Shown one piece after another: positions 48,060 through 64,000 of a stretch of DNA of 64,000 nucleotides. Position 1 is the first letter of the stretch, and every line of letters starts with the position of its first letter. This DNA comes from an uncultured Alphaproteobacteria bacterium. Lineage in GTDB: Bacteria > Pseudomonadota > Alphaproteobacteria > RF32 > CAG-239. The notes below the pieces were generated by a model. It was not told the origin of the DNA. It was given only the letters and a program-made list of their open reading frames with translations, and made no database searches. Made by a program: the position numbers and the translations under genes. The stretch is from contig CAKQTH010000001.1 of the NCBI GenBank assembly GCA_934276635.1, forward strand, positions 72,098 to 136,097, written 5' to 3'.

Positions 48060-48068
48060 CCCCCCCCC
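48060..48068. repeat. homopolymeric C9 tract in the intergenic region upstream of the pilin-like gene
   Basis: ccccccccc at 48060-48068, about 90 nt upstream of the pilin-like start (47970, minus strand). Confidence 0.9.
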
Positions 48069-48090
48069 GGCGGTTGTCAAGGATTTTTTG

Positions 48091-49392: not shown

Positions 49393-49402
49393 GGGGGGGG
49401 GG
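49393..49402. repeat. homopolymeric G10 tract within a purine-rich low-complexity stretch
   Basis: gggggggggg at 49393-49402, about 260 nt upstream of the S66 peptidase start; surrounding GA-rich sequence 49300-49450. Confidence 0.9.
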
Positions 49403-49460
49403 AAAAAAAGGGGAAGAAAAAACGGAGAGAAGGGAAGAGTATGAGAAAAGTGTAAAAGCA

Positions 49461-49490: not shown

Positions 49491-49706
49491 ATATTGGTCG
49501 GATTGACACCCTCTAAATTAGAAAAGAGATACCATCCGAAAAGCTTATAAAATACTTATAGCAGAAAAGCGCAGAAAACACAAGGCCTTTTTGCATTTTT
49601 TTATAAAAAATTTATCAAAGCGGGCAGACCTTCTAATCCACACTGCAGGGGTTGAGTTTTTGATACTGACCGCTGTGTTTGAAGTCAATTTTTTCATTTA
49701 ATTACA

Positions 49707-50177
49707 ATGACATATACTGCCCGCTTCGGTGATGAAACAAGGCCAAAGGCTTATTATGAGTTGACTTATATCAAATGTGCAGATGTCAGCAGAACTATAG
49801 CTATGGAAGAGACAAGTGAGATAAGGAATCTTCTCTCTCAAATAAAAAATACATTAAATAACATTCCTTACATAGTAGAAGAACAAAAAGGAACTAATTG
49901 GTATATCAAATGGTCAAATGGCATTCTAGAACAAGGAGGAACATATGATAAAGGATCACAAGTTACAGATTGGAGCGTTAATATTACAATGAATGTTGCG
50001 TTCATTAATACAAATTACCAATTAAATTGCCAACTTTATAGATTGGATAATGCAACAGGCTCGATTAACAACCAAGTATTTATCATAAACAGGACATCAT
50101 CGATGTTTACTGCCAGGCCTTATGGTGATGGCTCATCCCGATATATAGATTGGTACGCACGTGGATACTGGAAATAA
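49707..50177 (+). CDS. phage-associated hypothetical protein (possible minor tail protein)
   Basis: 156 aa; first gene of the tail-tip module; no recognisable motif. Confidence 0.4.
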   Translation: MTYTARFGDETRPKAYYELTYIKCADVSRTIAMEETSEIRNLLSQIKNTLNNIPYIVEEQKGTNWYIKWSNGILEQGGTYDKGSQVTDWSVNITMNVAFINTNYQLNCQLYRLDNATGSINNQVFIINRTSSMFTARPYGDGSSRYIDWYARGYWK

Positions 50178-50193
50178 CAGAAAGGAACAGATA

Positions 50194-50736
50194 ATGCCTG
50201 ATACGACGCTTTCAGAAGCACTAAAGGAAGCCTATGCTTCAGCTCCGAGTGATGTAATTTTATTGCACACCCTGGAACTGAGGCATCCGTCTTTTATAGA
50301 TGATCAGGGCCGACCGACAGCTATCTGGGTCGTGCGTGATCACGTTAACCACACCTGCACGCTTGAAAACTCGGCTCCGCTCAATCCTGGAGAGGCTGTT
50401 GAGTTTATTGCCATGGCGTTTGATCTGGAATTGCCACCGGTCAACAACACGCCGACACCTGAGATTTCGGTCACGATCGACAACGTTTCAACTGAAATGA
50501 TTGCTTATCTTGACCGGGCTATTGAGACACAGGATATGATCGAGCTGACATACCGGTCATATCTGTCTGACGACCTGACAACGCCACAGATGGACCCGCC
50601 GATAACCTTGGTTATTACTGATATTCATGTGGACTGCTATAAAATAACGGCTACAGCCCGCATGATGGACATCGGCAACAAGTCGTTTCCAAGTGAAAAC
50701 TATACCGTTAAAAACTATCCGGGATTAACACGATGA
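50194..50736 (+). CDS. phage minor tail protein (gpL-like position; possibly DUF1833 family)
   Basis: about 180 aa, RBS AAAGGAAC; sits immediately upstream of the NlpC/P60 and J-like genes as in lambda L-K-I-J. Confidence 0.4.
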   Translation: MPDTTLSEALKEAYASAPSDVILLHTLELRHPSFIDDQGRPTAIWVVRDHVNHTCTLENSAPLNPGEAVEFIAMAFDLELPPVNNTPTPEISVTIDNVSTEMIAYLDRAIETQDMIELTYRSYLSDDLTTPQMDPPITLVITDIHVDCYKITATARMMDIGNKSFPSENYTVKNYPGLTR

Positions 50737-51137
50737 CACATTTTGCTTGTAAATATATAGGCTTGCCCTGGGTTGCCGGTGCGCAAGGCCCTGATGAATT
50801 TGACTGTTGGGGAATGGTGCGCTGGATCCTGAAGCACGAATACGGCATAGATGTGCCGGCGGTAAATGTTAATCCGGATAATCTTCGGAGCGTTTTAGTT
50901 GCGTTTAAAGAGGATCCTGCATTCCGGGCGTTTAATGAAGTTGAAAAACCGCAAGACGGTGATGTTGTTCTGCTTCGTCAGTCAAAACATCCGGTTCATG
51001 CCGGCTTATGGTTAGATGCAGACGGCGGTGGTGTTTTACATTGTTGCCGCGATGCCGGTGTTATCTTTCAAGATTTGCCATCAATGCGTCTGTGCGGGTG
51101 GCAAATAGACAGCTATTATCGAGTAAAAGGAAAATAA
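50733..51137 (+). CDS. phage NlpC/P60-family cell-wall peptidase (lambda gpK-like)
   Basis: 134 aa; catalytic Cys in FDCWGMVRW, His in HPVHAGLWL, second His near C-terminus (VLHCC). Confidence 0.7.
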   Translation: MTHFACKYIGLPWVAGAQGPDEFDCWGMVRWILKHEYGIDVPAVNVNPDNLRSVLVAFKEDPAFRAFNEVEKPQDGDVVLLRQSKHPVHAGLWLDADGGGVLHCCRDAGVIFQDLPSMRLCGWQIDSYYRVKGK

Positions 51138-53372
51138 ATGATTTACTTTTCACACATTACAAACCCTTTTCAGCCGAATAAGGGTCGGATAGACAATGTC
51201 CTTGATGACGGCAAAACCGTTTGGGACATGGTCCGGGAACAGAAAGTGGACCTTTCGCGCCCGACAATATGCATGATAGACGGTGACGCAGTCCTCAGGA
51301 AGTTTTGGAACGATACCGTTCAGCCGAAATCCTTGGTCTGCTTCATCACTTTGCCACAAGGCGGTGGCGGTAAAAAGTCATCAAACCCGATTCAGGTTGT
51401 TTTGATGGTGGCCGTTGTTGTTGCATCTGTTTATACGGGCGGTGCTGTGGCGGCGGCCTATGGTGCTGTTTGGGGTAGCGTTGCGGCGGCGGCAGTTTCC
51501 ATTGGCGGAAGCTTTCTCGTCAACACATTCGTTCCACCACCTAAGGCCTCTCTTAACGGGTCCGGTTCGTCAAACTCCATAGCGGCACAAAGTCCGACTT
51601 ACTCCTTGCAGGCACAGGGTAATCAGGCCCGACTTGGCAACCCAATACCGGTCATTTACGGACGACACCTGATTTATCCGGATTTTGCCAGTCAGCCTTA
51701 TTACGCTTACGCCAACGATGAACAATACGTTTTTCAGGTTCATTGTATTGGCCAAGGTGAATACAACATCGAAAAAATCCGAATTGAGGACACGCCGATC
51801 AGCTCGTTTGAAGAGATAACCTATCAGATCATCAATCCGGGCGAAACAAACACCTTATTCCGTGATGATGTGGTGACTTCGCCTGAGGTTGCCGGTCAGG
51901 AACTTCTAAAAGGAAACACGATCGGACCGTTTGTCTTGAATCCGACCGAAAGTGAAATTGACCGGGTCGAGATAGATGTTGCTTGTCAGCGCGGCCTTTA
52001 TTATGCAAACGACAGCGGTGGTTTGAATACAAAATCGGTCCAATGGCAGATAGATGCCCGAAAAATTGATGATGAGGACAACGCGCTGGGTGACTGGTTT
52101 ACTCTTGGTACCGAAACAATTTCAGCGAATACCGTCAACGGAATTTACCGGACATTTGGTTATTCTGTAGCCAAAGGCCGATACGAGGTCCGGGCTACCC
52201 GGTTAGATGACAAAGACACATCTTCCCGCGCTGGTCACGAACTCAGATGGGCCTCGGCAAAAGGCTTTATTGTATCGACGCCGGATTACGGGAACGTAAC
52301 CTTGCTCGCAATTAAAATGAAAGCAACCAACAACCTGTCACAAAGGTCAAGCCGAATGGTGAACTGTATCGTGACAAGGAAGTTGCCGACATGGTCGCCA
52401 AGCGGTGGCTGGACAACTAAACAGCCGACCCGGTCAATTGCTTGGGCCATTGCAGATGTTTTGAAAGCCAGTTATGGTGCCGGTCTGACGGATAAGTCCA
52501 TAGATTTGCCGGGCCTTTACCGGTTAGATCAGACTTGGACGGCGCATGGCGACACCTTTAACGGAGTGTTTGACAGTAAGCTGACCATATATGAGGCCTT
52601 ATCAAAGATCTGTAAAGTCGGCCGGTCTGTTCCTTATATTCAAGGCGGCATTGTCCGGTTTGTCCGGGACGAGCCAAAATCCATACCGGTTGCTCTGTTC
52701 GGGCCGAGGAACATCGTTAAAAACAGCCTGACAATTCAATACATCATGCCGTCAGAAGATACGGCGGACAGCGTTTGCGTTCAGTATTTTTCGGACCGGA
52801 CTTGGAAGAACTCGGAAATAACAGGAAGTTTTGCGGGATCCAGCTCAGATAAGACGGCAACTGTTGAGCTTTTCGGCTGTACCGATAAAAACCAAGCTCT
52901 CCGGGAGGCCATCTATATGGCGTTGGCTAACCGATATCGCCGGCGCATTGTGACATTTTCAACCGAACTGGAAGGTCTGATTCCGAGCTATGGGGATTTA
53001 ATCTCGATCACACACGATATGCCGCATTGGGGAACCGGCGGTGAAATCCTGTCAAAAAATGACATGACTTTAACGCTATCGGAACCGGTTGAGTTTACCG
53101 AGGGTCAAACTCACTATTTAGCCTTACGAACCAGAACTGGGGAACTATCCGGGCCATATCGGGTAAAAGCCGGATCGCTTCCGACAGAAGTTATTTTACT
53201 GGATATGCCCGATATTCCTATTGATACTGGGACCAATGCAGAACGAACTCATTTTGCCTTTGGAACCCAAGACAAATGGGGAACATTAGCTCGTGTAACA
53301 GGAATTAAACCGCGCTCCGGCAAGGTTGAAATTACTGCCGTCATTGAGGACAGCAGAGTTCACGCCAATTAA
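51138..53372 (+). CDS. phage tail host-specificity protein (gpI-like N-terminus fused to gpJ-like tail-tip domain)
   Basis: 744 aa; N-terminal Gly-rich hydrophobic segment GGGGKKSSNPIQVVLMVAVVVASVYTGGAVAAAYGAV resembling the lambda gpI C-terminus; central GNPIPVIYGRHLIYPDFASQPYYAY...RYEVRATRLDD resembling the J/GTA-g15 'putative phage tail' domain. Confidence 0.65.
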   Translation: MIYFSHITNPFQPNKGRIDNVLDDGKTVWDMVREQKVDLSRPTICMIDGDAVLRKFWNDTVQPKSLVCFITLPQGGGGKKSSNPIQVVLMVAVVVASVYTGGAVAAAYGAVWGSVAAAAVSIGGSFLVNTFVPPPKASLNGSGSSNSIAAQSPTYSLQAQGNQARLGNPIPVIYGRHLIYPDFASQPYYAYANDEQYVFQVHCIGQGEYNIEKIRIEDTPISSFEEITYQIINPGETNTLFRDDVVTSPEVAGQELLKGNTIGPFVLNPTESEIDRVEIDVACQRGLYYANDSGGLNTKSVQWQIDARKIDDEDNALGDWFTLGTETISANTVNGIYRTFGYSVAKGRYEVRATRLDDKDTSSRAGHELRWASAKGFIVSTPDYGNVTLLAIKMKATNNLSQRSSRMVNCIVTRKLPTWSPSGGWTTKQPTRSIAWAIADVLKASYGAGLTDKSIDLPGLYRLDQTWTAHGDTFNGVFDSKLTIYEALSKICKVGRSVPYIQGGIVRFVRDEPKSIPVALFGPRNIVKNSLTIQYIMPSEDTADSVCVQYFSDRTWKNSEITGSFAGSSSDKTATVELFGCTDKNQALREAIYMALANRYRRRIVTFSTELEGLIPSYGDLISITHDMPHWGTGGEILSKNDMTLTLSEPVEFTEGQTHYLALRTRTGELSGPYRVKAGSLPTEVILLDMPDIPIDTGTNAERTHFAFGTQDKWGTLARVTGIKPRSGKVEITAVIEDSRVHAN

Positions 53373-53385
53373 GAAAGGACACATC

Positions 53386-53628
53386 ATGGATTGGATTCAA
53401 TTTTTACAGATCATCTGCGTACCGGCCTTTGGCTGGTTTTTTTATAAACTCGGGGAGCAACGCAAGGAGATTAAAACCCTCGAGCGTGACCTCAACGAGT
53501 TCAAAGTTGCGGTGGCCAAGGAATATGCCACTCAGGTTAACATCAATCGCATGGAGACAAAGATTGATGAATTACATCAGCTTTTATGGGAGATGCACAA
53601 TGAACACACCACGCGGCATAAGAAATAA
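53386..53628 (+). CDS. phage small membrane protein (N-terminal TM plus coiled coil; holin or holin-associated)
   Basis: 81 aa; RBS GAAAGGA; TM FLQIICVPAFGWFFY then charged coiled-coil. Confidence 0.45.
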   Translation: MDWIQFLQIICVPAFGWFFYKLGEQRKEIKTLERDLNEFKVAVAKEYATQVNINRMETKIDELHQLLWEMHNEHTTRHKK

Positions 53629-54007
53629 TAACCCCGGCAACATCCGTTGGGGTTCGGACTGGAAAGGATTAAAAAAGGACGGGAAACAGCAAGACCCGTC
53701 CTTTTGTGTATTTGAAACGCCTGAATACGGTATCCGAGCGTTGGCTAAATTACTGCGGAACTATCAGCGGCTTTATGGCCTGAACACACCTTATAGGATT
53801 ATCAGCCGGTACGCACCACCAACCGAAAACGAAACAGTTTCATATATAGACAGCGTGTCCCGGCAGTTAAACAGCACTCCGGACACACCGGTCGACCTTT
53901 CGGAAGATGGTGTCTTGCTGGTCTTTATTAAGGCAATCATCAGACATGAGAACGGCATACAACCATACTCTAATGAACCTCTATTGAAAGGAATACAAAT
54001 GGCATGA
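53600..54007 (+). CDS. phage protein with conserved RGIRNNNPGNIR motif (candidate cell-wall-active or virion protein)
   Basis: 135 aa; RBS GGGAG; start overlaps the previous gene out of frame; ATGA stop/start overlap with the next gene. Confidence 0.45.
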   Translation: MNTPRGIRNNNPGNIRWGSDWKGLKKDGKQQDPSFCVFETPEYGIRALAKLLRNYQRLYGLNTPYRIISRYAPPTENETVSYIDSVSRQLNSTPDTPVDLSEDGVLLVFIKAIIRHENGIQPYSNEPLLKGIQMA

Positions 54008-54222
54008 AAAAACGGCTTTGGATCCCGGTCCTCGGATGGATCTTGTGTTATGGTTTTTTGCACAACTGTCTGATAGCCCCTATAACGGGTCTGCCGGTAG
54101 TGGATTGGGAATATTTATTAACGGCCATGGGCATTTTACTCGGTGTCAGTGGCGCACGAGATATTGGATTAAAGGAAAGAAAAACACAAGATGTGGTATC
54201 AGATCACAAACCTTTGGAATAA
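54004..54222 (+). CDS. holin-like small membrane protein (2 TM)
   Basis: 72 aa; TM1 IPVLGWILCYGFL, TM2 YLLTAMGILLGVSGA, charged C-terminus. Confidence 0.5.
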   Translation: MKKRLWIPVLGWILCYGFLHNCLIAPITGLPVVDWEYLLTAMGILLGVSGARDIGLKERKTQDVVSDHKPLE

Positions 54223-54412
54223 AGGTAAATACTGGATAATCGCCGGTGCGGTGGCCGTTTTATACATACTCGGCTATCGGCGCGGCAAGGAAAAAGAACA
54301 AGTGAAAGTAATGAAAGGAACGGTGGACAATGTCAAAACGGCTAAAAGAAGTCGGGATAGCCTGGCTGATCCTAAGCGCGTTAAGCGGTTGCACGACAAA
54401 TATAAACGGTGA
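54191..54412 (+). CDS. Rz-like inner-membrane spanin (i-spanin)
   Basis: 73 aa; N-terminal TM YWIIAGAVAVLYILGY then Lys/Arg/Glu-rich periplasmic helix. Confidence 0.45.
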   Translation: MWYQITNLWNKGKYWIIAGAVAVLYILGYRRGKEKEQVKVMKGTVDNVKTAKRSRDSLADPKRVKRLHDKYKR

Positions 54413-54524
54413 TTTTTGCCTTTTATACGAACCGGTGTATGCGGATTATGAGCATGACACCCCGGAAACAATACATCAAATTGATAGGAATAACGTAGTT
54501 TATGACGATTTATGTACAAATTAA
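54330..54524 (+). CDS. Rz1-like outer-membrane lipoprotein spanin (o-spanin), overlapped with the Rz-like gene in a different frame
   Basis: 64 aa; lipobox LSALSGC; starts inside the Rz-like ORF and extends past it (overlapped spanin architecture). Confidence 0.45.
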   Translation: MSKRLKEVGIAWLILSALSGCTTNINGDFCLLYEPVYADYEHDTPETIHQIDRNNVVYDDLCTN

Positions 54525-54592: not shown

Positions 54593-55480
54593 ATGTTAAT
54601 ACTGAATATCAATGGGCCAATAAATTCTGGTAAATCAACCGTTTCTAAAATTTTGGTGAATATGTTCCCTAACACCACTTTTATTGAAGTGGATGAGCTG
54701 ATGAGTGATGAGGAACAAGCAAAGCTAGGATTATCCCTTCAACAAGGATGGCGGGAACGTCATAAACGATTGAAGCAGAAATTGCAAGCTCTTAAAAAAT
54801 CGCGTGCGTATGAAACTGTGATTTTTGCCTATCCGATTGCTGACAATACCTATCAAGATTGGAAAGCCTTGAAGGATGAACAGACAAAGTTTTTAAACAT
54901 TACCCTTGCACCCAATTTAGAGGAATGTCTAAAAAATCGTGGTACGCGAGAGTTGGACGATTGGGAACGGAACAGAATCAAAGAAATGTATGAGGAAGGC
55001 TATCAAAATCGTCCTTATTCCGACTTTATTATCAATAATGATAACCAAACACCCGCAGAAACCGCTGAGATTATTAAAGATTTTATTGAACATGCTTTAT
55101 CCCCGAAACAGCAATGGTTACATTTGGTTGAAAGGCGTTGGCCGGCTTTGTTAAATGGCGAAAAGACTTCCACATTCCGTTTGAATGAAGGATTTGTTCA
55201 TAAAGGATTTTTGGTCTATAAAGACTGCCCAAAAGAACAGTGGGCTGAGGTTGTTTATGTAACACAAATTTATTATGTGCCTTTGCGCCAAGCTATTGAA
55301 ATTGACGGATATGATGAACATACACCGGACATGGAAACAGCACTAAAACAAATGCGTGTTCATTACCCAGATATTACTTTGGATACGCCCATTTTATTTG
55401 CTCAGCATTTAGGCGCCCCAGAAACAAAGCAAAAATATCCACAAGAAGTGGCAAAAATTTTAAAGGAAATGGAAAAATGA
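54593..55480 (+). CDS. P-loop kinase (CPT/AAA_33-like) fused to a C-terminal ASCH domain
   Basis: RBS GAAAGAGGTG; Walker A NGPINSGKSTVS; C-terminal ASCH-like LLNGEKTSTFRL... Confidence 0.55.
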   Translation: MLILNINGPINSGKSTVSKILVNMFPNTTFIEVDELMSDEEQAKLGLSLQQGWRERHKRLKQKLQALKKSRAYETVIFAYPIADNTYQDWKALKDEQTKFLNITLAPNLEECLKNRGTRELDDWERNRIKEMYEEGYQNRPYSDFIINNDNQTPAETAEIIKDFIEHALSPKQQWLHLVERRWPALLNGEKTSTFRLNEGFVHKGFLVYKDCPKEQWAEVVYVTQIYYVPLRQAIEIDGYDEHTPDMETALKQMRVHYPDITLDTPILFAQHLGAPETKQKYPQEVAKILKEMEK

Positions 55481-55947
55481 GCTTACCAATTTGCTATCTT
55501 ATTTGTGGATTTTTGGGAGCTGGTAAGACAACTTATTCCCAAAAACTTTCAAAAGAAACGGGGGCCATTCATCTGAATCCAGATGAATGGTGTATGAAAT
55601 TGTTTTCTAAAGAAGAATATGAGCAAAATTGGAGCAAATGTTTTTCTGAAACAATAGAGCATCTTTGGAAAAAAGCAGAGGAATATGCTAAAAATGGAAA
55701 ATCCATTATTTTCGATATGGGATTTTGGACAAAACAAAGTCGGGATGAAGCAACACAAAGGGCAAAGGATTTGGGATTCAATCCTGTTATACATTTTTTG
55801 AATGTGCCAGATGAGATTTTGAAACAGCGGATTAGTGCTAGGAAAGGGACAATTGCAGAATATAATTTAAAGCATTTTGATGAATTAAAGAAGCAATTTG
55901 AAGAACCAGAAGAAAAAGAACAATATGTAAGAATAGAAAATTATTGA
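55477..55947 (+). CDS. P-loop kinase (AAA_33 / predicted small-molecule kinase family)
   Basis: Walker A CGFLGAGKTTYS, 156 aa; ATGA overlap with the upstream gene. Confidence 0.6.
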   Translation: MSLPICYLICGFLGAGKTTYSQKLSKETGAIHLNPDEWCMKLFSKEEYEQNWSKCFSETIEHLWKKAEEYAKNGKSIIFDMGFWTKQSRDEATQRAKDLGFNPVIHFLNVPDEILKQRISARKGTIAEYNLKHFDELKKQFEEPEEKEQYVRIENY

Positions 55948-55963
55948 TAAAAAGGAAGAAATA

Positions 55964-56449
55964 ATGCGTAAATCTGCTCGAGCAATCATAATTACAAAAG
56001 AAAACAAACTGCTATTGATGAAACGCACAAAACCGAATGAGGTATATTATGTTACAATCGGTGGTGGTATTGAAGATAGTGAAACATCTGAGCAAGCATT
56101 ATTGCGTGAGTTAAAAGAAGAAAGCGGAAGCATTGTTGATAAACCAGTTTTTGCTTTTCATTATGATGATATTGAAAGGCAAAATAGTGTGGATTTTTAT
56201 GTTTGTAAGGAAATTAATCGTACAAAACCGACAGGAATAGAATGTACAAAGCTAAACATGTCGGGTAATCAATATGAACTTACAGAAATAAGTAAAGATC
56301 AAATTAATAATATTCCACTTAAACCAGATGCTATCAAGGATAAGATTATCAAGATTTTTACTGATCAAGTAGATAATACTCTCCTTGAACCAAAGCTGAT
56401 TAAAAATAAAATCATCAAAAATTTTGAACATATTATTGTTAGGATTTAA
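55964..56449 (+). CDS. NUDIX hydrolase
   Basis: Nudix box GGGIEDSETSEQALLRELKEESG; RBS AAAGGAAG. Confidence 0.75.
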   Translation: MRKSARAIIITKENKLLLMKRTKPNEVYYVTIGGGIEDSETSEQALLRELKEESGSIVDKPVFAFHYDDIERQNSVDFYVCKEINRTKPTGIECTKLNMSGNQYELTEISKDQINNIPLKPDAIKDKIIKIFTDQVDNTLLEPKLIKNKIIKNFEHIIVRI

Positions 56450-56563
56450 TACATTTCTCTTACATACAATTATAATATTTAATTGGTGTAATTTAAAAAA
56501 ATATTGCCTTAAATATTCTAATATGTTAAAATGCCGGCAGGTTAAAATAAGAGAGTTTCCCAT

Positions 56564-57154
56564 ATGAAAAAGAAGATATATTTGTGTCGACATGCAGAAA
56601 CTATTTGGAATATTCCAGAAAATCAGCACCTACAGGGGTGGTCAGATAGTGATTTAAGCGAAAAGGGAAGAAATCAGACTTTGTTATTAAAAGATTTTCT
56701 CTTGAGAAGTAATATCTTAAAAATTTATACAAGCCCTTTGCTGCGATGTATTAGGACATTAAAACCTTTTTTAGAAACTAGAAATGTTGCTTGTGAAACA
56801 TTGGATCAATTAAAAGAGATAAATTATGGTTTATATGATGGACTGCCTTCGCATGAAGCTCGTCTTAAATATAGAGATTTTTTTACAGTTTACGATAATT
56901 CTCAAGATCCACAATCAAATACAATCCAATTTCCAAAAGGTGAAAGCAGGTTCGATGCTGCAAAACGCTTGTTGGAGGTATTAAAACATATCGTTACACA
57001 GGATGGTACGTGCTTTATTATGACGCATGGAGGGGTCCTGAGTTCTCTATTCCTTCTGTTATTTAATAAAAAACGAGAATTTAATAACTGTGAAGTTATA
57101 GAGCTTTGGTATGATAATTTACAAAAAAAATTTATAATTGAGGGGGATAAATGA
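56564..57154 (+). CDS. histidine phosphatase superfamily protein (phosphoglycerate-mutase-like branch 1)
   Basis: catalytic RHAET at residues 9-13 (LCRHAETIWN), 196 aa. Confidence 0.7.
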   Translation: MKKKIYLCRHAETIWNIPENQHLQGWSDSDLSEKGRNQTLLLKDFLLRSNILKIYTSPLLRCIRTLKPFLETRNVACETLDQLKEINYGLYDGLPSHEARLKYRDFFTVYDNSQDPQSNTIQFPKGESRFDAAKRLLEVLKHIVTQDGTCFIMTHGGVLSSLFLLLFNKKREFNNCEVIELWYDNLQKKFIIEGDK

Positions 57155-58800
57155 TAGAACTGCGTACAAAAAGTCCTTTAACAATAGTAGGGGTTAATTT
57201 AGGTCATGACGGTGGTGCGTGTATAATCCATAAAAATAAAATTATTAGTATTTCCGAGGAACGTTTGACCCGAAATAAAAAAGGATATGGATATCTATCT
57301 GCTTTGTTTTACTGTTTAAAGTCGCTTAAAATTACTGTAAAAGATATAGATTATGTTGCATTTAGTACTTATCATAAAAGACTACCTAAAGGGTATTTAG
57401 GCTTATTTGAAAGTTTGGGATTTAATAAAAAACAATCAATTATTATTGATCATCATGAATCTCATGCGTATGGTTCCTATTATTTATCAGGATTTGACGA
57501 GGCTCTGGTTGTTGTAATGGATGGCATGGGAAATGAAAATATGTCCGAAAGTTACTATCTGGCAAAAGGAAATAAAGTTAAAATTATCGGACATAATGAT
57601 TTAGATCGCTCTATATATGCTGGAGTAGGACGAGCATATGAATCGTTTACTAACTTCATTGGCTGGCCTACAACATGTGCTGGAAAAACAATGGGATTAT
57701 CTGCTTATGGGAAAGGAAACTACAAAAATATAAGATTGTTTAAAATAGATGATAATTTAAGGGTTTCCGCAGATTTGAAGAAAAAATATGGTGCTTCTGC
57801 TGAAGAATTTCTCTCAAGAAAGCATTTATCTGAACTTCTAAAAGAAAAAGGGAAGTTATCTGATGCAAAAGAAGTCGCAAAATTGATTCAAGATAAGACA
57901 GAAGATCTTTTTGTAGATCTAATAAAAAAATTAGTAGAGAAAACAGGCATTAGAAAGTTATGCTTAACAGGCGGATGTGCCCTTAATTGTGTTGCAAATC
58001 AAAAGTTATTAGATTTAGGCATTGTCGATGAAATATTTGTACCTCCATACCCCTGTGATACAGGACAAGCTGTTGGAAATGCCATAGCGGGGCTTGCTAA
58101 GAAAAAGATATATATAAAAGAAAGATTACCACACCCGTATTTTGGGAGGATGTATGATCGTAAAGAGATCTTAGATGTTTTACAAAAGAAACAGGAAATT
58201 TATCCACTTCCTTATGAAATAAAAATTAAGGATTATGACTTTAAAGAAATTCTTGATGAAAAAAAATATAACGAAATAATAGCAGACTATATTAAACATG
58301 ATCTTGTAGTCGGCTGGTTTCAAGGAGATTCCGAATTAGGACCGCGTGCCTTAGGTCATCGCAGTATTTTAGCAAATCCGACGTCCAAAACGATGAAGGA
58401 TCACATAAATATGAAAGTGAAGAAAAGAGAACCGTTCAGGCCTTTTGCAGCAAGTCTTTGCGATGATGATGTAGAAACATATTTCAAAAGTGGGCTTCAC
58501 GATAGATTTATGTCTTTTGCAATAGATTTAAAGGAAAAATATATTCCATTAATTCCAGCTGTTTTACATGTTGATAATACCTGTCGCCTTCAATCAGTTT
58601 CAAAAAAAGAGAACCCGAAGTATTATTCCTTAATAAAAGAACTAAAGAAAAAAATTGGTGTTCCAATGGTTTTAAATACTTCTTTTAACGAGGATAAAGA
58701 ACCAATAGTGGAAACCCCTGTTGATGCTTTAAGGCATTTAGCTGTTGGTAATATTGATGTTCTTGCTATGGATGATTTTATTGTGAGGTTAAAGAAATGA
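57151..58800 (+). CDS. NodU/CmcH-family O-carbamoyltransferase (TobZ/NovN-like)
   Basis: HHESH metal motif, GWFQGDSELGPRALGHRS, KREPFRPFA, HVDNTCRLQSV, NTSFN: the full set of family signatures; 549 aa. Confidence 0.85.
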   Translation: MIELRTKSPLTIVGVNLGHDGGACIIHKNKIISISEERLTRNKKGYGYLSALFYCLKSLKITVKDIDYVAFSTYHKRLPKGYLGLFESLGFNKKQSIIIDHHESHAYGSYYLSGFDEALVVVMDGMGNENMSESYYLAKGNKVKIIGHNDLDRSIYAGVGRAYESFTNFIGWPTTCAGKTMGLSAYGKGNYKNIRLFKIDDNLRVSADLKKKYGASAEEFLSRKHLSELLKEKGKLSDAKEVAKLIQDKTEDLFVDLIKKLVEKTGIRKLCLTGGCALNCVANQKLLDLGIVDEIFVPPYPCDTGQAVGNAIAGLAKKKIYIKERLPHPYFGRMYDRKEILDVLQKKQEIYPLPYEIKIKDYDFKEILDEKKYNEIIADYIKHDLVVGWFQGDSELGPRALGHRSILANPTSKTMKDHINMKVKKREPFRPFAASLCDDDVETYFKSGLHDRFMSFAIDLKEKYIPLIPAVLHVDNTCRLQSVSKKENPKYYSLIKELKKKIGVPMVLNTSFNEDKEPIVETPVDALRHLAVGNIDVLAMDDFIVRLKK

Positions 58801-59867
58801 ACAATTTAACATTATCTCAACCAGAATTAAAACAACGAATTGTAATAGGGCGTGATTTTTATCTAGAAGAATTAGAAAAATTCATAGCAGTATCTGATTA
58901 TAAATCTATATTTTTAATTTATGATACAAATTTAAAAGAAGAAAAAAAGAAAATTGCCAATTTATTAAAAAATAAACGTTTTTCATCATATGGAATTAGA
59001 GCAAATCAAGAAAAAAGTACTAACTTGGTAATCTCGGCAATAAAAAAAATGCAAATTTTTGGTTGCCTTAGAAACACGTTATTAATTGCTCTTGGTGGTG
59101 GTTTTATAGGAGATATTAGTGGTGTAGTCTCATCTGTATATATGCGTGGAATAGACTATATCCAGATAGGAACAACTGCTATGTCACAATTTGATGCAAT
59201 AGTACAAAAAGTAGCTGTTAATGTGAATCATTATAAAAATATTATGGGCGCATTTCATTCGCCAATATTAACTTTTTGCGATACAGAATTCGTTGAAAAA
59301 GACCCTTCATGTTTAAATTCGTTTTGTGAAGTAATCAAACACAAAATTATTGTAAAAAGTTCTTTGAAACAACTTCAAGAGCTAGAAAATAAAGAGCTAA
59401 AAAACGGAGAATTTCCAAAAATTATTTATGATTCTTTGAAAGTAAAATTGAATTGCGCAGCTCATGATCCATTTGATACTCTTGGAATACAAAAAAAACT
59501 GTCCTTAGGGCATACTATTGCGAATATCATAGAAACAAAAACATCTTTAACTCATGGGGAAGCTGTTTGGATTGGATTGCTAGTGGCTATAAGAGTTTCA
59601 CTATTTTTATATCCTAAATCTAATTATTTAGCTGATCTAGACGTTTTTACAAACAATTTTATAGTAAAACACAAAGTGAAACTCCCTAAAATAACTCTAA
59701 AGAAAGACGATATTCTACCACTCCTAAAGAAGGATAAAATATCTATGGATAAGGGGTTATCTATGGTGATAATCAATGAGAAAAATGAAGTTTCTATAAA
59801 AAATGATTTGTCTATTGATACAATTATCTCTGCGATGAGAAAAACACCTTATATAAGAGTAAAATAA
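58797..59867 (+). CDS. 3-dehydroquinate synthase-like sugar-phosphate cyclase (DHQS/DOIS/EEVS superfamily), divergent
   Basis: GGGFIGDISGVVSSVYMRGIDYIQIGTTAMSQFDAIVQKVAVN, KNIMGAFHSP, metal-binding GHTIANIIE...HGEAVWIG; 356 aa. Confidence 0.7.
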   Translation: MNNLTLSQPELKQRIVIGRDFYLEELEKFIAVSDYKSIFLIYDTNLKEEKKKIANLLKNKRFSSYGIRANQEKSTNLVISAIKKMQIFGCLRNTLLIALGGGFIGDISGVVSSVYMRGIDYIQIGTTAMSQFDAIVQKVAVNVNHYKNIMGAFHSPILTFCDTEFVEKDPSCLNSFCEVIKHKIIVKSSLKQLQELENKELKNGEFPKIIYDSLKVKLNCAAHDPFDTLGIQKKLSLGHTIANIIETKTSLTHGEAVWIGLLVAIRVSLFLYPKSNYLADLDVFTNNFIVKHKVKLPKITLKKDDILPLLKKDKISMDKGLSMVIINEKNEVSIKNDLSIDTIISAMRKTPYIRVK

Positions 59868-59872
59868 ATTTT

Positions 59873-60949
59873 TTAGAAATTTGTAACGGTTGGTATTTCT
59901 TTTAGGCTCTTAATGTCTTTCTTTTGCTTATACCATTCAAACAGCCAGTTCCACATTTTATAAATAAATACTTTATCCTCTTTTATATAGCCCAATACAT
60001 TAGAAACGAGGAAACAGCGGCAAAACATTCGAGAAACAAATTCTTTTCTCCAATCAAAATATTTAGAGCATTCTGCCACAGTCGGTAAAAACATTTTATC
60101 AAAAAAGACATCAAAAGTGAGTTTTGCGTCCACCAAATTAATCGGGCCAGTTAGACTACTGTTATTTTTTATAAATATGGGGTTATATTTCATTAGTAAA
60201 AGGCGCTGAGAACTCAAAAACCAGAAACATATACTAATATCGCATAAAATTGGATTTATTCCGCACTGGTCTAAATCCCAAAACAACCAATCATATGAAT
60301 AATTAAAATCATATAAATCGCCGTGTGACAACGTTGTCAATGTAATTGAATCCGATTTGAAGTATTCTATTACAGTCGCAATAGATTCTGAAATACTATC
60401 AAGTAAATCAGGTGCCAGTCGTGAAATATCTTGAAGAAGTAGCAAATAATCATTTTGGTAAAAATTTACGGCCCTTCCTTTAAACAAGCGATCTTCAAAA
60501 AAAGTCGCCGAAGGATAGTTGTCTGTTTTTTCAGAGGATTCAATATTTTTTAAATATAGGTGCGATAATTTATTGAAAAATTGTGTGATTTTATTCCTTT
60601 TATGAATATCTCTATCATACCCTACATACACAAACCCATTCTTTTCTTTTGCTTGAATATATTCATAAACAAGAACTGTCGTCTTGTTTTTTCCAAGAAT
60701 TGAGTCCAGTATTTTAGGCGTAGGAAATAAAAGACTAAAATTTTTTAGTCGTATAAAATCACTTTGTGAAAAATTATCATAAAAAAACTTTAAAAAATAT
60801 TTATTATTTTCAATTGTTAGTATTCCGCTTTTTATTTTAGAAGGTCTGTCCTTGTCGAAAAACGGTAGAAAATCAAACCCATGAATTTTATTTTCTATAA
60901 TTAAATTGATACATGACGTTAATTGACAATGTGTCACACTTACACTCAT
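59873..60949 (-). CDS. aminoglycoside-phosphotransferase (APH)/choline-kinase-fold kinase
   Basis: Brenner catalytic motif LSHGDLYDFN plus downstream D (WDLD); 358 aa; only minus-strand gene in the island. Confidence 0.65.
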   Translation of the reverse strand: MSVSVTHCQLTSCINLIIENKIHGFDFLPFFDKDRPSKIKSGILTIENNKYFLKFFYDNFSQSDFIRLKNFSLLFPTPKILDSILGKNKTTVLVYEYIQAKEKNGFVYVGYDRDIHKRNKITQFFNKLSHLYLKNIESSEKTDNYPSATFFEDRLFKGRAVNFYQNDYLLLLQDISRLAPDLLDSISESIATVIEYFKSDSITLTTLSHGDLYDFNYSYDWLFWDLDQCGINPILCDISICFWFLSSQRLLLMKYNPIFIKNNSSLTGPINLVDAKLTFDVFFDKMFLPTVAECSKYFDWRKEFVSRMFCRCFLVSNVLGYIKEDKVFIYKMWNWLFEWYKQKKDIKSLKEIPTVTNF

Positions 60950-61081
60950 TTGAGCCTTCCATATTTTTTACATATACTTGCTATTATAAATAATTTGTTA
61001 GAAAGACACAAGAATTTTGTATGTTTTTTTTGTTTTTTAGCAGAAAAACTCAAATAAATATTTTATTTTGATTGAAATTGG

Positions 61082-61089
61082 TGTATAAT
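61082..61089 (+). promoter_or_regulatory. candidate extended -10 promoter element (TGTATAAT) in the divergent intergenic region
   Basis: TGnTATAAT at 61082-61089, 30 nt upstream of ATG 61119. Confidence 0.3.
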
Positions 61090-61118
61090 AATATAAATTC
61101 ATTTTAAGGTATGAAATC

Positions 61119-62297
61119 ATGCATCGGCAATTTGATACATATACGACCTTTTTCGATTTGGGAATAGATCATGCAGATTTTCCATTCTGTTCGTTGGAGT
61201 ACTGTTCTGGTGGATTTAACAAAAAAAGAGCCCATACTAATCGTATTATTTGGAAGAGATTAACTGGACAGGATTTATCAGCAGAAGAAGCTATTCAAGC
61301 TGATAAGTTTATTCAGGGAATAGGTTATGCTGAACAAAAAAAGAAATTTGAACATTGTGCTTTATGTTCGGATACATTTACGTGTGAACCTCTTGTAGAG
61401 TTTTCTGGAAAATTTAATTATTGGGATTTAGCTTTTCCAACAAGCCCATATACTCCAGCAGGAATTATGATTTATTTAAAAGAACGTAAAAAATTAAGAT
61501 TAGAGGTTATTGATGCATTGTCGAAAGAGGCCTTTGAAGAAATTGAGACAATAGCAAACTCCCTTTTTTACATACTAAAAAATGAAATACCCGATCTATG
61601 TGGTGTAAATATACTGTTTCATCAAATTTCGACCTCTCAAGCCTGTTTACATGGGCATGTTGAGCTGATGCTTCACAATATAGACCCTTCTCTTGGATGT
61701 TTTTTAAAGAAACAGCGTCCATTTGATATTTGTGCGAACTACCTAAATAACCAACTTGAAGAAAAAGATAACATATGTTTTTTTACAGAGGGAATTAGAT
61801 TGAATAGTAAATCTTTTTCCGTATTAGAAACAATGAAAATTATTAAAGAATACCGCAATAATACTGTTAATTTATTTAATTTTTTTTCTGAAGTACGTAA
61901 AAATTACTTTAGTAAAACATCTAAACAAAAAAAGGCAAAAGAATTGCTTTCACAAAAAGGGTTTAATTCTACACAAATTGACCAGATATTATTTGATATA
62001 ACACCGGCCCCAATAAATTGTGTATATTTTACTTACTATAGGAATGAATATTTCATTTCTATTATTCCAGAATTAATTTTAAGATCAATACCATTAAGTA
62101 AAATCACAGATGATGAATACTTGTTATACAATTTAAAGTATAATGCCATTCAACCACGTGAAGAAAAGTTTTTTTTAGAAGAAAAGCACCCATTAATACG
62201 ACCAAGTATAAAATTGAGACAAGCAATGCCTGCTGATAAAAAAATATTAATCTTAAAACAAATCGTTCACAATATATTATCAAAGGAGCGTTTATGA
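61119..62297 (+). CDS. hypothetical protein; tentative GalT/HIT-like nucleotidyltransferase
   Basis: 392 aa; N-terminal Cys pair FPFCSLEYCSGG resembling the GalT zinc site; His dyad LHGHVELML resembling the HIT/GalT H-x-H motif; assignment weak. Confidence 0.4.
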   Translation: MHRQFDTYTTFFDLGIDHADFPFCSLEYCSGGFNKKRAHTNRIIWKRLTGQDLSAEEAIQADKFIQGIGYAEQKKKFEHCALCSDTFTCEPLVEFSGKFNYWDLAFPTSPYTPAGIMIYLKERKKLRLEVIDALSKEAFEEIETIANSLFYILKNEIPDLCGVNILFHQISTSQACLHGHVELMLHNIDPSLGCFLKKQRPFDICANYLNNQLEEKDNICFFTEGIRLNSKSFSVLETMKIIKEYRNNTVNLFNFFSEVRKNYFSKTSKQKKAKELLSQKGFNSTQIDQILFDITPAPINCVYFTYYRNEYFISIIPELILRSIPLSKITDDEYLLYNLKYNAIQPREEKFFLEEKHPLIRPSIKLRQAMPADKKILILKQIVHNILSKERL

Positions 62298-63100
62298 TGG
62301 GATTTTCTTTTCTTACATTGCCCCATTCACATTTAGTAAAAATAGTTAGTTTATTAGATAACTTGTCTAATGATGAAAAAGGCTTCCTACGTAAAAGTGG
62401 GGATATTACGATAGACAATGGACATTACTTCATTAAGGAATTGAGAAAAGAACGAATTATTTTTCCTCCAGATCAATACATTAAATTTTATCAGGAGTAT
62501 TATCACAAATTAAATTCCGCTATTGAGACATATCCTTCCTATGGTATGTGGTGTATAGACAATAAAGTATTTGAGGTTCAACCATTTATTGCTAATCAAT
62601 CTATAATGATGAGAGGGACTCTATTGGATTGGAATACCTTAAAAAAGACTTATACAAAAATACTACAAGATATTGATTCAGTTCAAAGAAAATATGGAAC
62701 AAAAGATTTTTCTTTCGTTGGAATTGAAACTGCGATTTGGAATTTTTCAACAGATGGACGTCTGTATGATTTTAATCCTGTGCGCCTATATAATGCAAAT
62801 TGTCTATTTACCACAACAAATGATCCTGATATGCTAGAAAAAACAAAGTTTCGTAATTTCTCGCCTTTTGGAATGAAGGTTAATTTATTAGCAACAGTTG
62901 GAATCGCAGTCAAAAATAAAGATTTTATCTTGCAAAATAATCCAAACAATTGGTTTTTGGAGTTAAAATCGATACTTAGGGATAATCTTAAGGCTCAAGA
63001 TAGTGAAAAAGTCGATCTACTTGAAAATCAAACTGATTTTCCTAAATGGCATCCGTTACAAATAATAAATAATTTCAACAGGGGGGGAAGAAATGGATAA
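62294..63100 (+). CDS. hypothetical protein, degenerate APH-fold kinase paralogue (catalytic His-Gly-Asp not conserved)
   Basis: STDGRLYDFNPVRL aligns with SHGDLYDFNYSYD of the 59873-60949 kinase but lacks the HGD triad; RBS AAGGAG. Confidence 0.45.
   Translation: MMGFSFLTLPHSHLVKIVSLLDNLSNDEKGFLRKSGDITIDNGHYFIKELRKERIIFPPDQYIKFYQEYYHKLNSAIETYPSYGMWCIDNKVFEVQPFIANQSIMMRGTLLDWNTLKKTYTKILQDIDSVQRKYGTKDFSFVGIETAIWNFSTDGRLYDFNPVRLYNANCLFTTTNDPDMLEKTKFRNFSPFGMKVNLLATVGIAVKNKDFILQNNPNNWFLELKSILRDNLKAQDSEKVDLLENQTDFPKWHPLQIINNFNRGGRNG
63081..63087. repeat. G7 homopolymeric tract overlapping the RBS of the IMPase-like gene
   Basis: ggggggg at 63081-63087. Confidence 0.9.
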
Positions 63101-63829
63101 ATATTCGGATTTAGAGAAAATACTGCAAAAATTAATATCCCTTTCTGTTGAAGCTGGAGAACTAGCTAAATCGATTAAAGAAAAAAAAGAATGTGCAGAT
63201 GAAGAAATTGAAATTTTTATCCGTAATAATTTAAAAGACTTCAATTATTCATTTATAGGAGAAGAAACAAAACCTTTTATAAATCAAACTTCTAACCGTT
63301 GTTTTGTTGTCGATCCGATTGATGGCAGTCTGAACTATCAGAATGGTGATGAAAATTGGTGTGTTTCTATATCTCTTATGGAGAATGAAGCGCCGCTTCT
63401 TGGGGTTGTTTTTGTTCCTGAAAAACATATGCTTTTTTACGCGCAAAAAACAAAAGGGGCAAAAATCCTTGATTGTCAGAAACATTCCGAAAGCAGTCTT
63501 GTTATTAAAAAGAAATCAAATTTAATTGAATTATTAGGGGCATCCGACAATTCTACCAAGATCAGAGAAATCTTGCTAAATACTGTTTTAGATAAAAATT
63601 ATATTCGTTTCCGACATACAGGATCCATAGTTGTTGCTTCTTTAAAGCTAATAATGGGGGAGCAAGAGGTATAATATATGGGGGAAAGACTCATTTGCAT
63701 GATATAGCAGCTGTATGGTTAATTGTTAAAGAAAGCGGTGGGGAAACATTCTTTAATAAGGATAAAGGATTGTTTATTGCGACACAGGATAAAGAGACAA
63801 TGGAAAAATTAGAGAGGTTTTATTTATGA
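63093..63829 (+). pseudogene. inositol monophosphatase-family gene split by a +2 frameshift at a G5 run (63680-63684)
   Basis: N-terminal frame 63093-63674 carries the metal motifs FIGEETKPF and FVVDPIDGSLNY; the C-terminal signature HDIAAVWLIVKESGGE (WD-AAG...EAGG) lies in the +2 frame 63677-63829. Confidence 0.55.
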
Positions 63830-64000
63830 TAAAGGATGCAGAATGGAATAATATAAAAGAAATCGTGGCACAATTGAATATTCCAAATGAGTACAGAGAA
63901 GCTATCATATTTGGAATAAAGAAAATCTATAACGTTATGCCTTATAAACCCATTTTTATTGGGATATGTGGTAGTGCCGCGCGAGAAGATATTGTTCCAA
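63828..64000 (+). CDS. nucleotidyltransferase-domain protein (Pol-beta superfamily, ANT/Lnu-like), N-terminal part; continues past window end
   Basis: ...IGICGSAAREDIVP matches the G-S-x-A-R-G nucleotidyltransferase motif; ATGA overlap with the preceding stop. Confidence 0.45.

Follow-up and report, generated by a model that had tools for sequence, protein, structure and literature searches.

A rare dehydroquinate synthase-like clade at the centre of a conserved operon, carried in enlarged form by an integrative element of a gut alphaproteobacterium

The right-hand end of a 64,000-nt stretch of an uncultured alphaproteobacterial genome (contig CAKQTH010000001.1; hereafter the window) carries an AT-rich island of small-molecule enzyme genes. 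This island is an enlarged version of a rare, scattered and undescribed operon centred on a distinct clade of the dehydroquinate synthase (DHQS) superfamily. The constant centre of the operon comprises the DHQS-like gene together with one or more MutT-like NUDIX hydrolases, a pol-beta nucleotidyltransferase (NTase), a kinase that is either of the aminoglycoside phosphotransferase (APH) fold or HprK-like, and nucleoside monophosphate (NMP) kinases resembling thymidylate kinase (TMK) or cytidylate kinase (CMK). The island is cargo of a phage-derived integrative element in a tRNA-Pro gene and is strain-variable in the species of the window. Every part of the operon comes from an enzyme superfamily already known, and small-molecule pathways on mobile elements are familiar as a kind of system; what is new here is the well-defined DHQS-superfamily clade and the newly delineated conserved operon around it. 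We tentatively propose that the pathway makes a sugar-modified, here carbamoylated, nucleoside or nucleotide.

A conserved operon around a rare clade

Among 5.8 billion proteins, the DHQS-like protein has three close relatives (97, 67 and 55% identity) and about 20 more at 29-36%, after which ordinary AroB sequences follow. The same partners are found near clade members at 55, 35, 31 and about 30% identity (loci L007, L010/L016, L011, L017, L035 and L036); recurrent among them are an APH-like kinase, a pol-beta NTase, a NUDIX hydrolase and a P-loop kinase with an ESGKSS loop.

Scanning the JGI metagenomes with the clade alignment gave 80 loci, of which 16 belong to the clade and 62 are aroB-like by sequence signature. 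Partner families were searched in the open reading frames (ORFs) of these loci with local hidden Markov models (HMMs), the aroB-like set comprising five times more DNA. NUDIX hydrolases occur in 8 of the 16 independent clade loci, the NTase in 7, the CMK-like kinase in 7, the TMK-like kinase in 5 and the APH-like kinase in 4. The corresponding counts in the 62 aroB-like loci are one NUDIX hydrolase and no NTase, CMK-like, TMK-like or APH-like gene. When all 24 clade loci are taken together, partner co-occurrence has Fisher p values of 1e-10 to 1e-12.

Several partners also occur as fusions: NUDIX-NTase (402 aa), nucleoside diphosphate kinase (NDK) with a P-loop kinase (328 aa), NTase-GNAT (401 aa), TMK-like/CMK-like/NUDIX (592 aa), TMK-like/CMK-like (384-396 aa) and NUDIX with a family 2 glycosyltransferase, GT2 (460 aa). 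Adenosine deaminase (A_deaminase) is present in five loci and opens the operon in L050 and L053, while phosphoribosyltransferase (Pribosyltran), dNK, CYTH, HAD and methyltransferase genes occur singly. Where the APH-like kinase is missing, an HprK-like orphan of about 320 aa takes the same position, on the opposite strand and convergent after the DHQS-like gene (Table 1). Its loop, read by eye, is degenerate (HGSA...FGDDGxSTAKT), and the shared position makes it possible that one kinase has been displaced by a non-homologous one.

Other genes of the island are more restricted. Carbamoyltransferase and histidine phosphatase genes are each found in 4 of the 24 clade loci; a 392-aa and a 268-aa protein, a phosphatase of the inositol monophosphatase (IMPase) family and an AAA_33 kinase are confined to the lineage of the window (L001, L014 and, in part, L013). 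All of these are add-ons in some lineages and not part of the core.

The core operon is not always on a mobile element, since in L040 and L050 it stands in housekeeping surroundings, between hisS/yqeY and ybeY/ftsA/ftsZ. This setting favours ordinary nucleotide or cofactor salvage or house-cleaning, a copy of which was taken up by the mobile element and which has no dedicated bioactive product. Deaminase, NMP kinases, NUDIX hydrolases and phosphatases are typical parts of such a system, and the cluster contains no exporter or regulator. We nevertheless regard salvage as improbable: the clade has a patchy distribution and is very rare (about 20 members in the 5.8 billion proteins searched), it is strain-variable cargo of foreign GC content in the species of the window, and the TobZ-type carbamoyltransferase, which is strongly constrained (dN/dS 0.04), is no salvage enzyme.

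Literature searches found no paper describing this gene combination, and a 2025 review of purine nucleoside antibiotic pathways makes no mention of NUDIX, dehydroquinate, carbamoyl or cyclase. One of the sister loci, L011 (GCA_964655935.1, contig CAZZNY010000003.1), has long ORFs only when UGA is read as a sense codon (code 4); its cluster of NUDIX, NTase, DHQS-like, APH-like and histidine phosphatase genes adjoins YcaO and nitroreductase genes.

The DHQS-like enzyme is neither AroB nor DOIS by fingerprint

A first-pass annotation of the window had noted a DHQS-like sugar-phosphate cyclase, and both Pfam domains confirm its membership of the superfamily (Table 1). Its score against the NCBIfam aroB equivalog model, 178.4 bits, falls below the cut-off of 305. 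The protein keeps the GGGxxxD NAD motif of AroB, the Glu/His/His metal ligands and four of the six phosphate ligands (Arg/Lys/Asn/Lys), and it has these, like the Pfam domains, in common with BtrC, a 2-deoxy-scyllo-inosose synthase (DOIS), as well. Residues G100-G102, D106, E178, H239 and H253 are invariant across clade and AroB sequences. The AroB motif GxRxxLNxGHTxGHAxE, on the other hand, is changed to GxQ/HKxLSLGHTxANxxE; Ser236, Ala242 and Asn243 do not vary among 17 clade members, giving the signature LSLGHTxAN. Alignment to solved structures shows LNLGHTxGH in DHQS and FEYGHTIGH in BtrC (PDB 2d2x). BtrC reads FEYGHTIGHAIE where the island protein reads LSLGHTIANIIE, and the latter does not match the catalytic Glu243 and GHTIGHAIE motif of DOIS.

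Three AroB columns, occupied by Arg, Asn and His in five AroB sequences and four solved DHQS structures, hold Gln or His, Ser and Asn, respectively, in the clade. We take these columns to be the carboxylate-binding Arg264 and the phosphate-pocket Asn268 and His275 (A. nidulans DHQS numbering), and we assume for the DHQS and BtrC residues the functional roles given in the A. nidulans DHQS and BtrC structure papers. Like DOIS, the island enzyme lacks the carboxylate-binding Arg. At the position of DHQS Asn268 and BtrC Glu243 it carries Ser, and Asn takes the place of the His that the two share. Because the clade differs at the Asn/Glu position and at the conserved His, it is neither AroB nor DOIS by this fingerprint, a comparison that covered DHQS and DOIS. 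By score, the island cyclase lies closer to those two than to 2-epi-5-epi-valiolone synthase (EEVS; ValA 51.8 bits vs 105 bits). The neighbourhood also differs from that of AroB or DOIS, consisting of nucleotide enzymes and not of shikimate or aminoglycoside genes. The DHQS-like protein probably retains activity as an NAD- and metal-dependent enzyme, with a carboxylate-free phosphate ester as its substrate.

A candidate pathway to a modified nucleoside or nucleotide

The first-pass annotation had interpreted the island as a pathway to a carbamoylated, nucleotide-activated cyclitol. Much of that interpretation stands, namely a foreign and compact island, most of the enzyme families, and a logic of phosphorylation, nucleotidyl transfer, trimming and carbamoylation. 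What the comparison of loci changes is that the conserved partners prove to be nucleotide enzymes and that the cyclase has the fingerprint of neither AroB nor DOIS. These partners point to nucleotide chemistry, which they fit at least as well as the chemistry of a free cyclitol. We prefer a nucleoside or nucleotide as the product because all genes of the minimal operon but one encode nucleotide enzymes, and because the deaminase and the NDK fusions would otherwise be idle; the margin over a nucleotide diphosphate (NDP)-carbasugar is small.

On the preferred reading, the P-loop kinases, joined in some relatives by NDK and adenosine deaminase, would build and interconvert the nucleotide. The DHQS-like enzyme, with bound NAD+ and metal, would then oxidise a hydroxyl next to a phosphorylated carbon of the sugar part, eliminate the phosphate and re-reduce the product, with ring closure optional; such reactions are known from DHQS and DOIS. 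A hydroxyl might be activated or masked by the APH-like kinase together with the NTase, and in the lineage of the window the TobZ-like enzyme would O-carbamoylate the product via a carbamoyl-adenylate. The NUDIX hydrolase, the histidine phosphatase and the IMPase (broken here) may strip phosphates, by which toxic nucleotides would be kept low or the nucleoside released. As no exporter or regulator accompanies these genes, the product probably acts inside the cell or leaves it at lysis. The mobile element and its restriction and DrmD-like neighbours suggest a possible role in conflict with phages or competitors. Going further, the clade could be a nucleotide-acting phospho-lyase/cyclase that converts an ordinary nucleotide into a deoxy-unsaturated or carbocyclic analogue, here carbamoylated. 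Dispersed as prophage cargo, the operon would employ this analogue inside the cell as an antiviral or antibacterial chain terminator or antimetabolite, a counterpart of viperin outside the radical-SAM enzymes; we rate this extension as a long shot.

The strongest competitor, which we hold to be rather unlikely and yet well ahead of the remaining ones, is a nucleotide-activated carbasugar pathway, essentially the cyclitol model described above, in which the nucleotide is a handle. Here the DHQS-like enzyme would cyclise a plain sugar phosphate, the APH- or HprK-like kinase would phosphorylate the product and the NTase would couple it to a nucleotide; tailoring would fall to a glycosyltransferase (in sister operons) or to the carbamoyltransferase (here), editing or release to the NUDIX hydrolase and phosphatases, and NTP regeneration to the NMP kinases. 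Such a pathway accords with the retention of metal, NAD and most phosphate ligands and the DOIS-like loss of the carboxylate-binding Arg, with the adjacent or overlapping kinase and NTase genes of L010, L016, L046, L050 and L053, with the presence of an IMPase, and with the identity of the nearest solved carbamoyltransferase, TobZ, which acts on an aminocyclitol antibiotic. It also accords with the Pfam-identified NUDIX-GT2 fusion in L035 and the separate GT2 in L041; NUDIX proteins of matching size (466-468 aa) in L037 and L058 are candidates for the same fusion. However, five of the seven genes of the minimal operon would merely supply the nucleotide handle, and the model has no obvious place for adenosine deaminase, phosphoribosyltransferase or the NDK fusion. 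Furthermore, the island genes include no aminotransferase, dehydrogenase or glycosyltransferase, the clade lacks a His that is conserved in both DHQS and DOIS, and we know of no pol-beta NTase that makes NDP-sugars.

A number of points weigh against a modified nucleoside or nucleotide as well. We infer every chemical step of the nucleotide pathway, and to our knowledge no DHQS-family enzyme acts on a nucleotide. The GT2 of several sister operons, probably fused to NUDIX in three cases, and the adjacency or overlap of kinase and NTase genes fit an NDP-carbasugar equally. The surroundings of the operon in L040 and L050 fit ordinary metabolism better than a conflict system, and the island has no aminotransferase, Pur10-type oxidoreductase or exporter. 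Finally, the HMMs used for co-occurrence were built from the first eight loci, so that only the 16 later loci constitute an independent test.

Comparison with known systems

The pathways to puromycin (pur) and to 3'-amino-3'-deoxyguanosine (adgA-E, Photorhabdus) include NAD-dependent oxidation of a nucleotide sugar and later employ a NUDIX hydrolase (Pur7) and an IMPase-family phosphatase (Pur3), which dephosphorylate the toxic nucleotide. The island has a NUDIX hydrolase and an IMPase as well, a likeness at the level of enzyme family, and like the adg genes it is a small, low-GC operon. The adg genes form a low-GC proteobacterial operon that makes a nucleoside from GTP with homologues of Pur10, Pur4, Pur7 and Pur3 (PMC9239236). 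Unlike pur and adg, the island has no Pur10-type oxidoreductase (no Pur10-type or GFO-type oxidoreductase domain was found by Pfam in any island gene), no Pur4 aminotransferase and no MFS exporter, and it has instead a DHQS-like enzyme, a carbamoyltransferase, an APH-like kinase and an NTase.

The chemistry proposed for the DHQS-like enzyme has a parallel in angustmycin A biosynthesis (AgmA-F), where AgmF, with tightly bound NAD, carries out oxidation, elimination and reduction on the sugar of a nucleoside (PMC8599513). That pathway converts a sugar phosphate to a nucleotide via kinase and phosphoribosyltransferase-type enzymes and then dephosphorylates it (PMC8599513). AgmF is a relative of S-adenosylhomocysteine hydrolase and eliminates water, whereas the island candidate is a relative of DHQS and would eliminate phosphate; no Agm homologues were identified for the island.

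The clusters for validamycin, acarbose and tobramycin have in common with the island the logic of cyclase, kinase and nucleotidyltransferase and a TobZ-like O-carbamoyltransferase. Unlike these C7-cyclitol and aminoglycoside clusters, the island has no aminotransferase, dehydrogenase or pseudo-glycosyltransferase. The folds of kinase and NTase differ too, being APH and pol-beta in the island, whereas the kinases and NTases of those clusters are ROK and GlgC-like.

Prokaryotic viperin systems share with the island a mobile or defence-island context, and with our proposal the notion of an intracellular, sugar-modified nucleotide. The P-loop kinases of the island weakly resemble VakA (5.7e-7) and the pVip-associated kinase (1.4e-4). 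In contrast to viperin systems, the island encodes no radical-SAM enzyme, and its proteins matched no defence system in PADLOC-DB 2.0, where only generic kinase and NUDIX matches (1e-4 to 4e-9) were obtained.

If the core operon makes a modified nucleoside, a modified nucleotide or an NDP-carbasugar, the clade would represent a new reaction class of the DHQS superfamily, with a signature usable for genome mining. It would also provide a compact pathway of 6-12 genes from the human gut microbiome for heterologous expression, and might reveal a new small-molecule weapon or immunity mechanism on mobile elements. Should the product turn out to be mundane, a conserved and unannotated gene neighbourhood is still defined by about 25 loci. 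It gives a working context to several orphan families, namely the kinases of APH-like and HprK-like type, the pol-beta NTase and the 392-aa and 268-aa proteins.

Composition and extent of the island

GC content, computed in 1-kb windows, is 0.38-0.51 over 1-54 kb, 0.40 at 54-55 kb and 0.35 at 55-56 kb, and stays at 0.30-0.33 from 56 kb to the end of the window at 64 kb. A by-eye estimate in the first-pass annotation, a shift to about 30% from 54.6 kb, is thereby borne out, and the drop from about 44% to about 30% is placed at 54.5-55.5 kb. A search for proteins identical to the carbamoyltransferase located this locus on long scaffolds from human-gut metagenomes. The copy L001, which reaches further than the window (its coordinates are window coordinates minus 47150), stays low in GC up to about 18.1-18.5 kb, equivalent to 65.3-65.6 kb of the window. 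The island is thus about 11 kb long, with its last 1.3 kb or so beyond the window, and L001 supplies the right boundary that the earlier annotation had proposed to look for past 64 kb.

Ten ORFs extend from 54512/54593 to 63674, and an eleventh starts at 63827. They are as tightly packed as previously described, with four 4-bp ATGA overlaps (55477/55480, 57151/57154, 58797/58800 and 62294/62297). The absence of aminotransferase, dehydrogenase and (pseudo)glycosyltransferase genes, already noticed for the window, extends to all 13 island genes of window and L001 (Pfam), so that the part past 64 kb adds no aminotransferase or glycosyltransferase either. No direct repeats were found to flank the AT-rich block within the element, a scan for promoters and terminators gave sites no more frequent than chance, and Rfam detected no riboswitch or other ligand-naming RNA in seven loci.

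The integrative element

The left junction of the element lies in a tRNA-Pro(CGG) gene. The empty-site strain L025 has an intact tRNA-Pro(CGG) (L025 13916-13992) right after an LD-carboxypeptidase gene, and homology between L025 and the window stops at window position 49507, within the 3' end of the tRNA. This break, together with the 13-nt remnant (Table 1), identifies everything from 49508 on as an integrative element. The 13-mer is present in all copies, occupied and empty; the integrase gene and the reconstituted tRNA have to be sought over 19 kb further right.

Downstream of the island, L001 encodes a P-loop kinase, a 249-aa protein with no family assigned, a DrmD-like SNF2 helicase and a type III restriction enzyme. 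PADLOC supports the latter two (4e-76 and 6e-65, respectively; L001 19008-21650, equivalent to about 66.2-68.8 kb of the window). The element therefore carries defence genes, which are separate from the island that they flank.

Between the junction and the island lies a phage remnant (Table 1), whose genes match phrog_396, 329, 469/31, 873 and 1275 of PHROGs, including the endolysin (phrog_873, 1e-55) and the Rz-like spanin (4e-6). No head, tape-measure or replication genes were seen in this part with PHROGs. The phage lysis cassette that the first-pass annotation placed beside the island is real, but the phage is a remnant within the integrative element and not a whole phage.

The lysis genes and the island recur in a second context, L014, together with a truncated J gene, a serine recombinase and a DrmD-like gene in fragments. 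The shared arrangement indicates that the island moved, or was rearranged, together with the lysis module. Proteins of L001 and L014 are mostly 95-98% identical, compared with 91% for the DHQS-like protein, 82% for the APH-like kinase and 69% for the AAA_33 kinase, and dS reaches 1.2; this mosaic suggests recombination between diverged copies of the island. Between the same two copies, dN/dS is 0.04-0.34 for ten genes, which are thus maintained by selection, the 392-aa and 268-aa proteins included.

Proximity to phage genes raises the alternative of a phage-type pre-replicative hypermodification of DNA or RNA, in which a non-canonical nucleotide would be produced, or a hydroxymethyl base decorated, by the kinases, NUDIX hydrolase and NTase before incorporation into nucleic acid, with the ASCH domain as reader of the modified base. 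The island directly follows the lysis cassette in both contexts, the P-loop-ASCH protein matches phage dNMP and thymidylate kinase PHROGs, and phage TET hypermodification clusters are reported to contain DHQS-like and CTP-transferase genes (PMC8256090). We consider this very improbable, as no TET, DNA methyltransferase, hydroxymethylase, DNA glycosyltransferase or polymerase gene was found in or beside the cluster, the phage here is a remnant, and most sister operons lie outside phage contexts. Nor did two pattern scans of IMG/VR, with the carbamoyltransferase and with the APH-like alignment, retrieve any relatives.

Another related locus, L013 (6391-11077), holds a 65%-identical right-hand module only, with a CMK-like kinase and the NTase, 268-aa, 392-aa and APH-like genes. 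The module has no DHQS-like, carbamoyltransferase, NUDIX or histidine phosphatase gene and adjoins lexA and a serine recombinase; it may be a stand-alone unit or a deletion remnant.

Table 1. Features of the window and HprK-like genes of related loci (window positions unless a locus is named)
Feature	Position	Strand	Evidence and remarks
tRNA-Pro(CGG), 3' end remnant (13 nt)	49495..49507	-	left junction of inserted element
Phage remnant	49707..54524	+	minor tail L-like, K-like (NlpC/P60), J-like tail tip, endolysin, small lysis genes, Rz-like spanin
P-loop kinase + ASCH fusion	54593..55480	+	ASCH 6.4e-5 (24 bits, cut-off 21.2)
AAA_33 P-loop kinase	55477..55947	+	AAA_33 3.9e-27
NUDIX hydrolase, MutT-like	55964..56449	+	NUDIX 6.8e-12; intact Nudix box GGGIEDSETSEQALLRELKEESG
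Histidine phosphatase, branch 1	56564..57154	+	His_Phos_1 1.4e-35; RHAET and HGG motifs
NodU/CmcH/TobZ-type carbamoyltransferase	57151..58800	+	Carbam_trans_N 4.5e-40, Carbam_trans_C 2.1e-62
DHQS-superfamily enzyme, distinct rare clade	58797..59867	+	DHQ_synthase 4.3e-26, DHQS_C 1.3e-16
APH-fold small-molecule kinase, 358 aa	59873..60949	-	small orphan family; accepted from profile and fold searches
392-aa protein, unknown fold	61119..62297	+	CxxC (80-83), HGHVE (178-182), by eye
268-aa protein	62294..63100	+	no family match; dN/dS 0.34
IMPase-family phosphatase pseudogene	63093..63830	+	ORFs of 193 aa and 44 aa; Inositol_P 1.3e-21 (N-terminal part)
Pol-beta-type NTase, 245 aa	63827..64000, runs off window	+	full gene L001 16677-17414
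HprK-like orphan	L037 9046-9978	-	
HprK-like orphan	L039 1179-2156	-	
HprK-like orphan	L058 5829-6800	-	
HprK-like orphan	L035 3809-4747	-	
HprK-like orphan	L017 9367-10341	-	

Enzymes of recognised families

Two P-loop kinases had been predicted, one of them fused to an ASCH domain. Pfam supports AAA_33 in the one and ASCH in the other, while the P-loop half of the fusion has weak Pfam matches only (AAA_18, SKI). Its likely start is 54593, with the longest ORF running from 54512; most cluster members are 293-295 aa long. In PHROGs the fusion protein matches families of the thymidylate kinase or dNMP kinase type. The related cluster L007 encodes a free-standing ASCH homologue with 54% identity, and L014 has the island without the fusion gene. 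The AAA_33 kinase has as its best PDB matches four entries (4gp7 and relatives, about 1e-6) that bear the depositor name 'metallophosphoesterase' and that we take to be the kinase domain of the polynucleotide kinase Pnkp; it also matches NCBIfam bacter_Pnkp (3e-5) and has a dN/dS of 0.16 against L014.

The NUDIX hydrolase and the histidine phosphatase of the first-pass annotation are both confirmed by their Pfam domains (Table 1). Nearest to the NUDIX protein are the NCBIfam models MutT, NudB and RppH, which places it closest to NTP pyrophosphatases; those nearest to the histidine phosphatase, CobC and PspA, are both below cut-off.

The NodU/CmcH-type carbamoyltransferase likewise proved sound, with both domains above the Pfam gathering score (Kae1-like PF02543, 138.6 bits, cut-off 24; YrdC-like PF16861, 210.1 bits, cut-off 27). 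It matches TobZ at 1.5e-58 and NovN and GdmN at about 1e-55 to 1e-57. The motifs HHESH, MDGMG, DTGQAVG, GPRALGHRS, REPFRPFA and NTSFN were spotted in it by eye. The protein is 80% identical to the L007 copy, where neighbouring genes are 42-55% identical, and its low dN/dS, cited above, comes from L001 vs L014.

The frameshift suspected in the IMPase gene is real. Alignment to the intact 244-aa orthologue of L014 shows a 2-bp insertion near position 63660, and the split is present in every metagenome copy of the species of the window. The 44-aa ORF weakly matches the C-terminal end of Inositol_P (E 0.092, 12.7 bits, positions 220-245 of 271).

The APH-fold kinase, the NTase and the orphan proteins

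The 358-aa protein, annotated at first pass as an APH-fold kinase, has no Pfam (including PF01636) or NCBIfam match, and its family counts 37 cluster representatives among 1.84 billion proteins. The assignment to the APH fold comes instead from the family. Its profile matches amicoumacin kinase (1e-4) across the HGDxxxxN...D catalytic loop, two of the 28 family members match PF01636 (E up to 8e-5), and a fold search with an AlphaFold2 model of low confidence (predicted local distance difference test, pLDDT, 57) yields APH-fold kinases only. On these three lines we accept it as a predicted APH-fold kinase. The catalytic loop reads HGDLYDFN...WDLD, with D211, N216 and D225 invariant in the 28 members. 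Distant relatives in metagenome-assembled genomes (MAGs) of Clostridium and Bacilli lie near GT61-like, canonical APH, UvrD-like and rml genes; no DHQS-like gene is beside them, so they have little bearing on the island. A GTDB scan with the island kinase gave only distant homologues, in Bacillota MAGs, and no locus of the species of the window.

The pol-beta-type nucleotidyltransferase of the first-pass annotation is upheld by an NTP_transf_2 (PF01909) score just above the cut-off (21.5 bits against 21) and by a match of the family profile to the minimal NTase 2rff (1.6e-5); its GS...SDVD motif is invariant in seven homologues.

These two genes invite a reading of the island as a cassette of antibiotic-modifying resistance enzymes, made up of an APH, an aminoglycoside nucleotidyltransferase (ANT)-like NTase and a P-loop kinase resembling chloramphenicol phosphotransferase (CPT). 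The fold search with the kinase does retrieve aminoglycoside kinases, and the NTase profile weakly matches kanamycin nucleotidyltransferase (KNTase; 0.04). We find this scarcely credible: the similarity of both proteins to resistance enzymes is limited to catalytic motifs, the genes are co-conserved with the DHQS-like and NUDIX genes across distant lineages, and a cyclase-type enzyme and a carbamoyltransferase would have no role in resistance. Megablast with the island and the phage part found no match in phage, plasmid and E. coli collections, and a known resistance island, a match considered at first pass, is thus not represented among the plasmid or E. coli records.

Two earlier assignments find no support. 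The GalT/HIT-like nucleotidyltransferase was called from short motifs only, and the 392-aa protein concerned has no HIT or GalP_UDP_transf domain match, nor any other match in Pfam, NCBIfam, PHROGs, PADLOC or PDB; its trimmed core gave no Pfam match even at E up to 5, and a single-sequence AlphaFold2 model was unusable for judging a HIT/GalT fold (pLDDT 37). The protein is found only in L001, L013 and L014 and has a dN/dS of 0.22. The degenerate APH paralogue is the 268-aa protein, which BLASTP aligns with the 358-aa kinase over one 15-aa patch (E 0.01), too little to call paralogy.

Flanking genes

Genes upstream of 46.5 kb are housekeeping ones, among them transketolase, ATP synthase, PriA, SpoT and lepB-rnc-era. 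Between era and the insertion site, genes for a PilS/bundlin-like pilin and an S66 LD-carboxypeptidase occupy 47398-49134 on the minus strand. The empty-site strain has both genes too, which places them outside the element and rules out the peptidase as an MccF-like immunity gene. Between the peptidase gene and the tRNA remnant there is a homopolymeric G/A tract whose length differs by strain (window 49393-49420; L025 13812-13845). Further upstream, a GcrA-family cell-cycle regulator, indicative of an alphaproteobacterial host, is encoded next to priA (38504-38974, minus strand), and SpoT (41056-43203) is 715 or 737 aa long across assemblies of the same species, reflecting alternative start calls.

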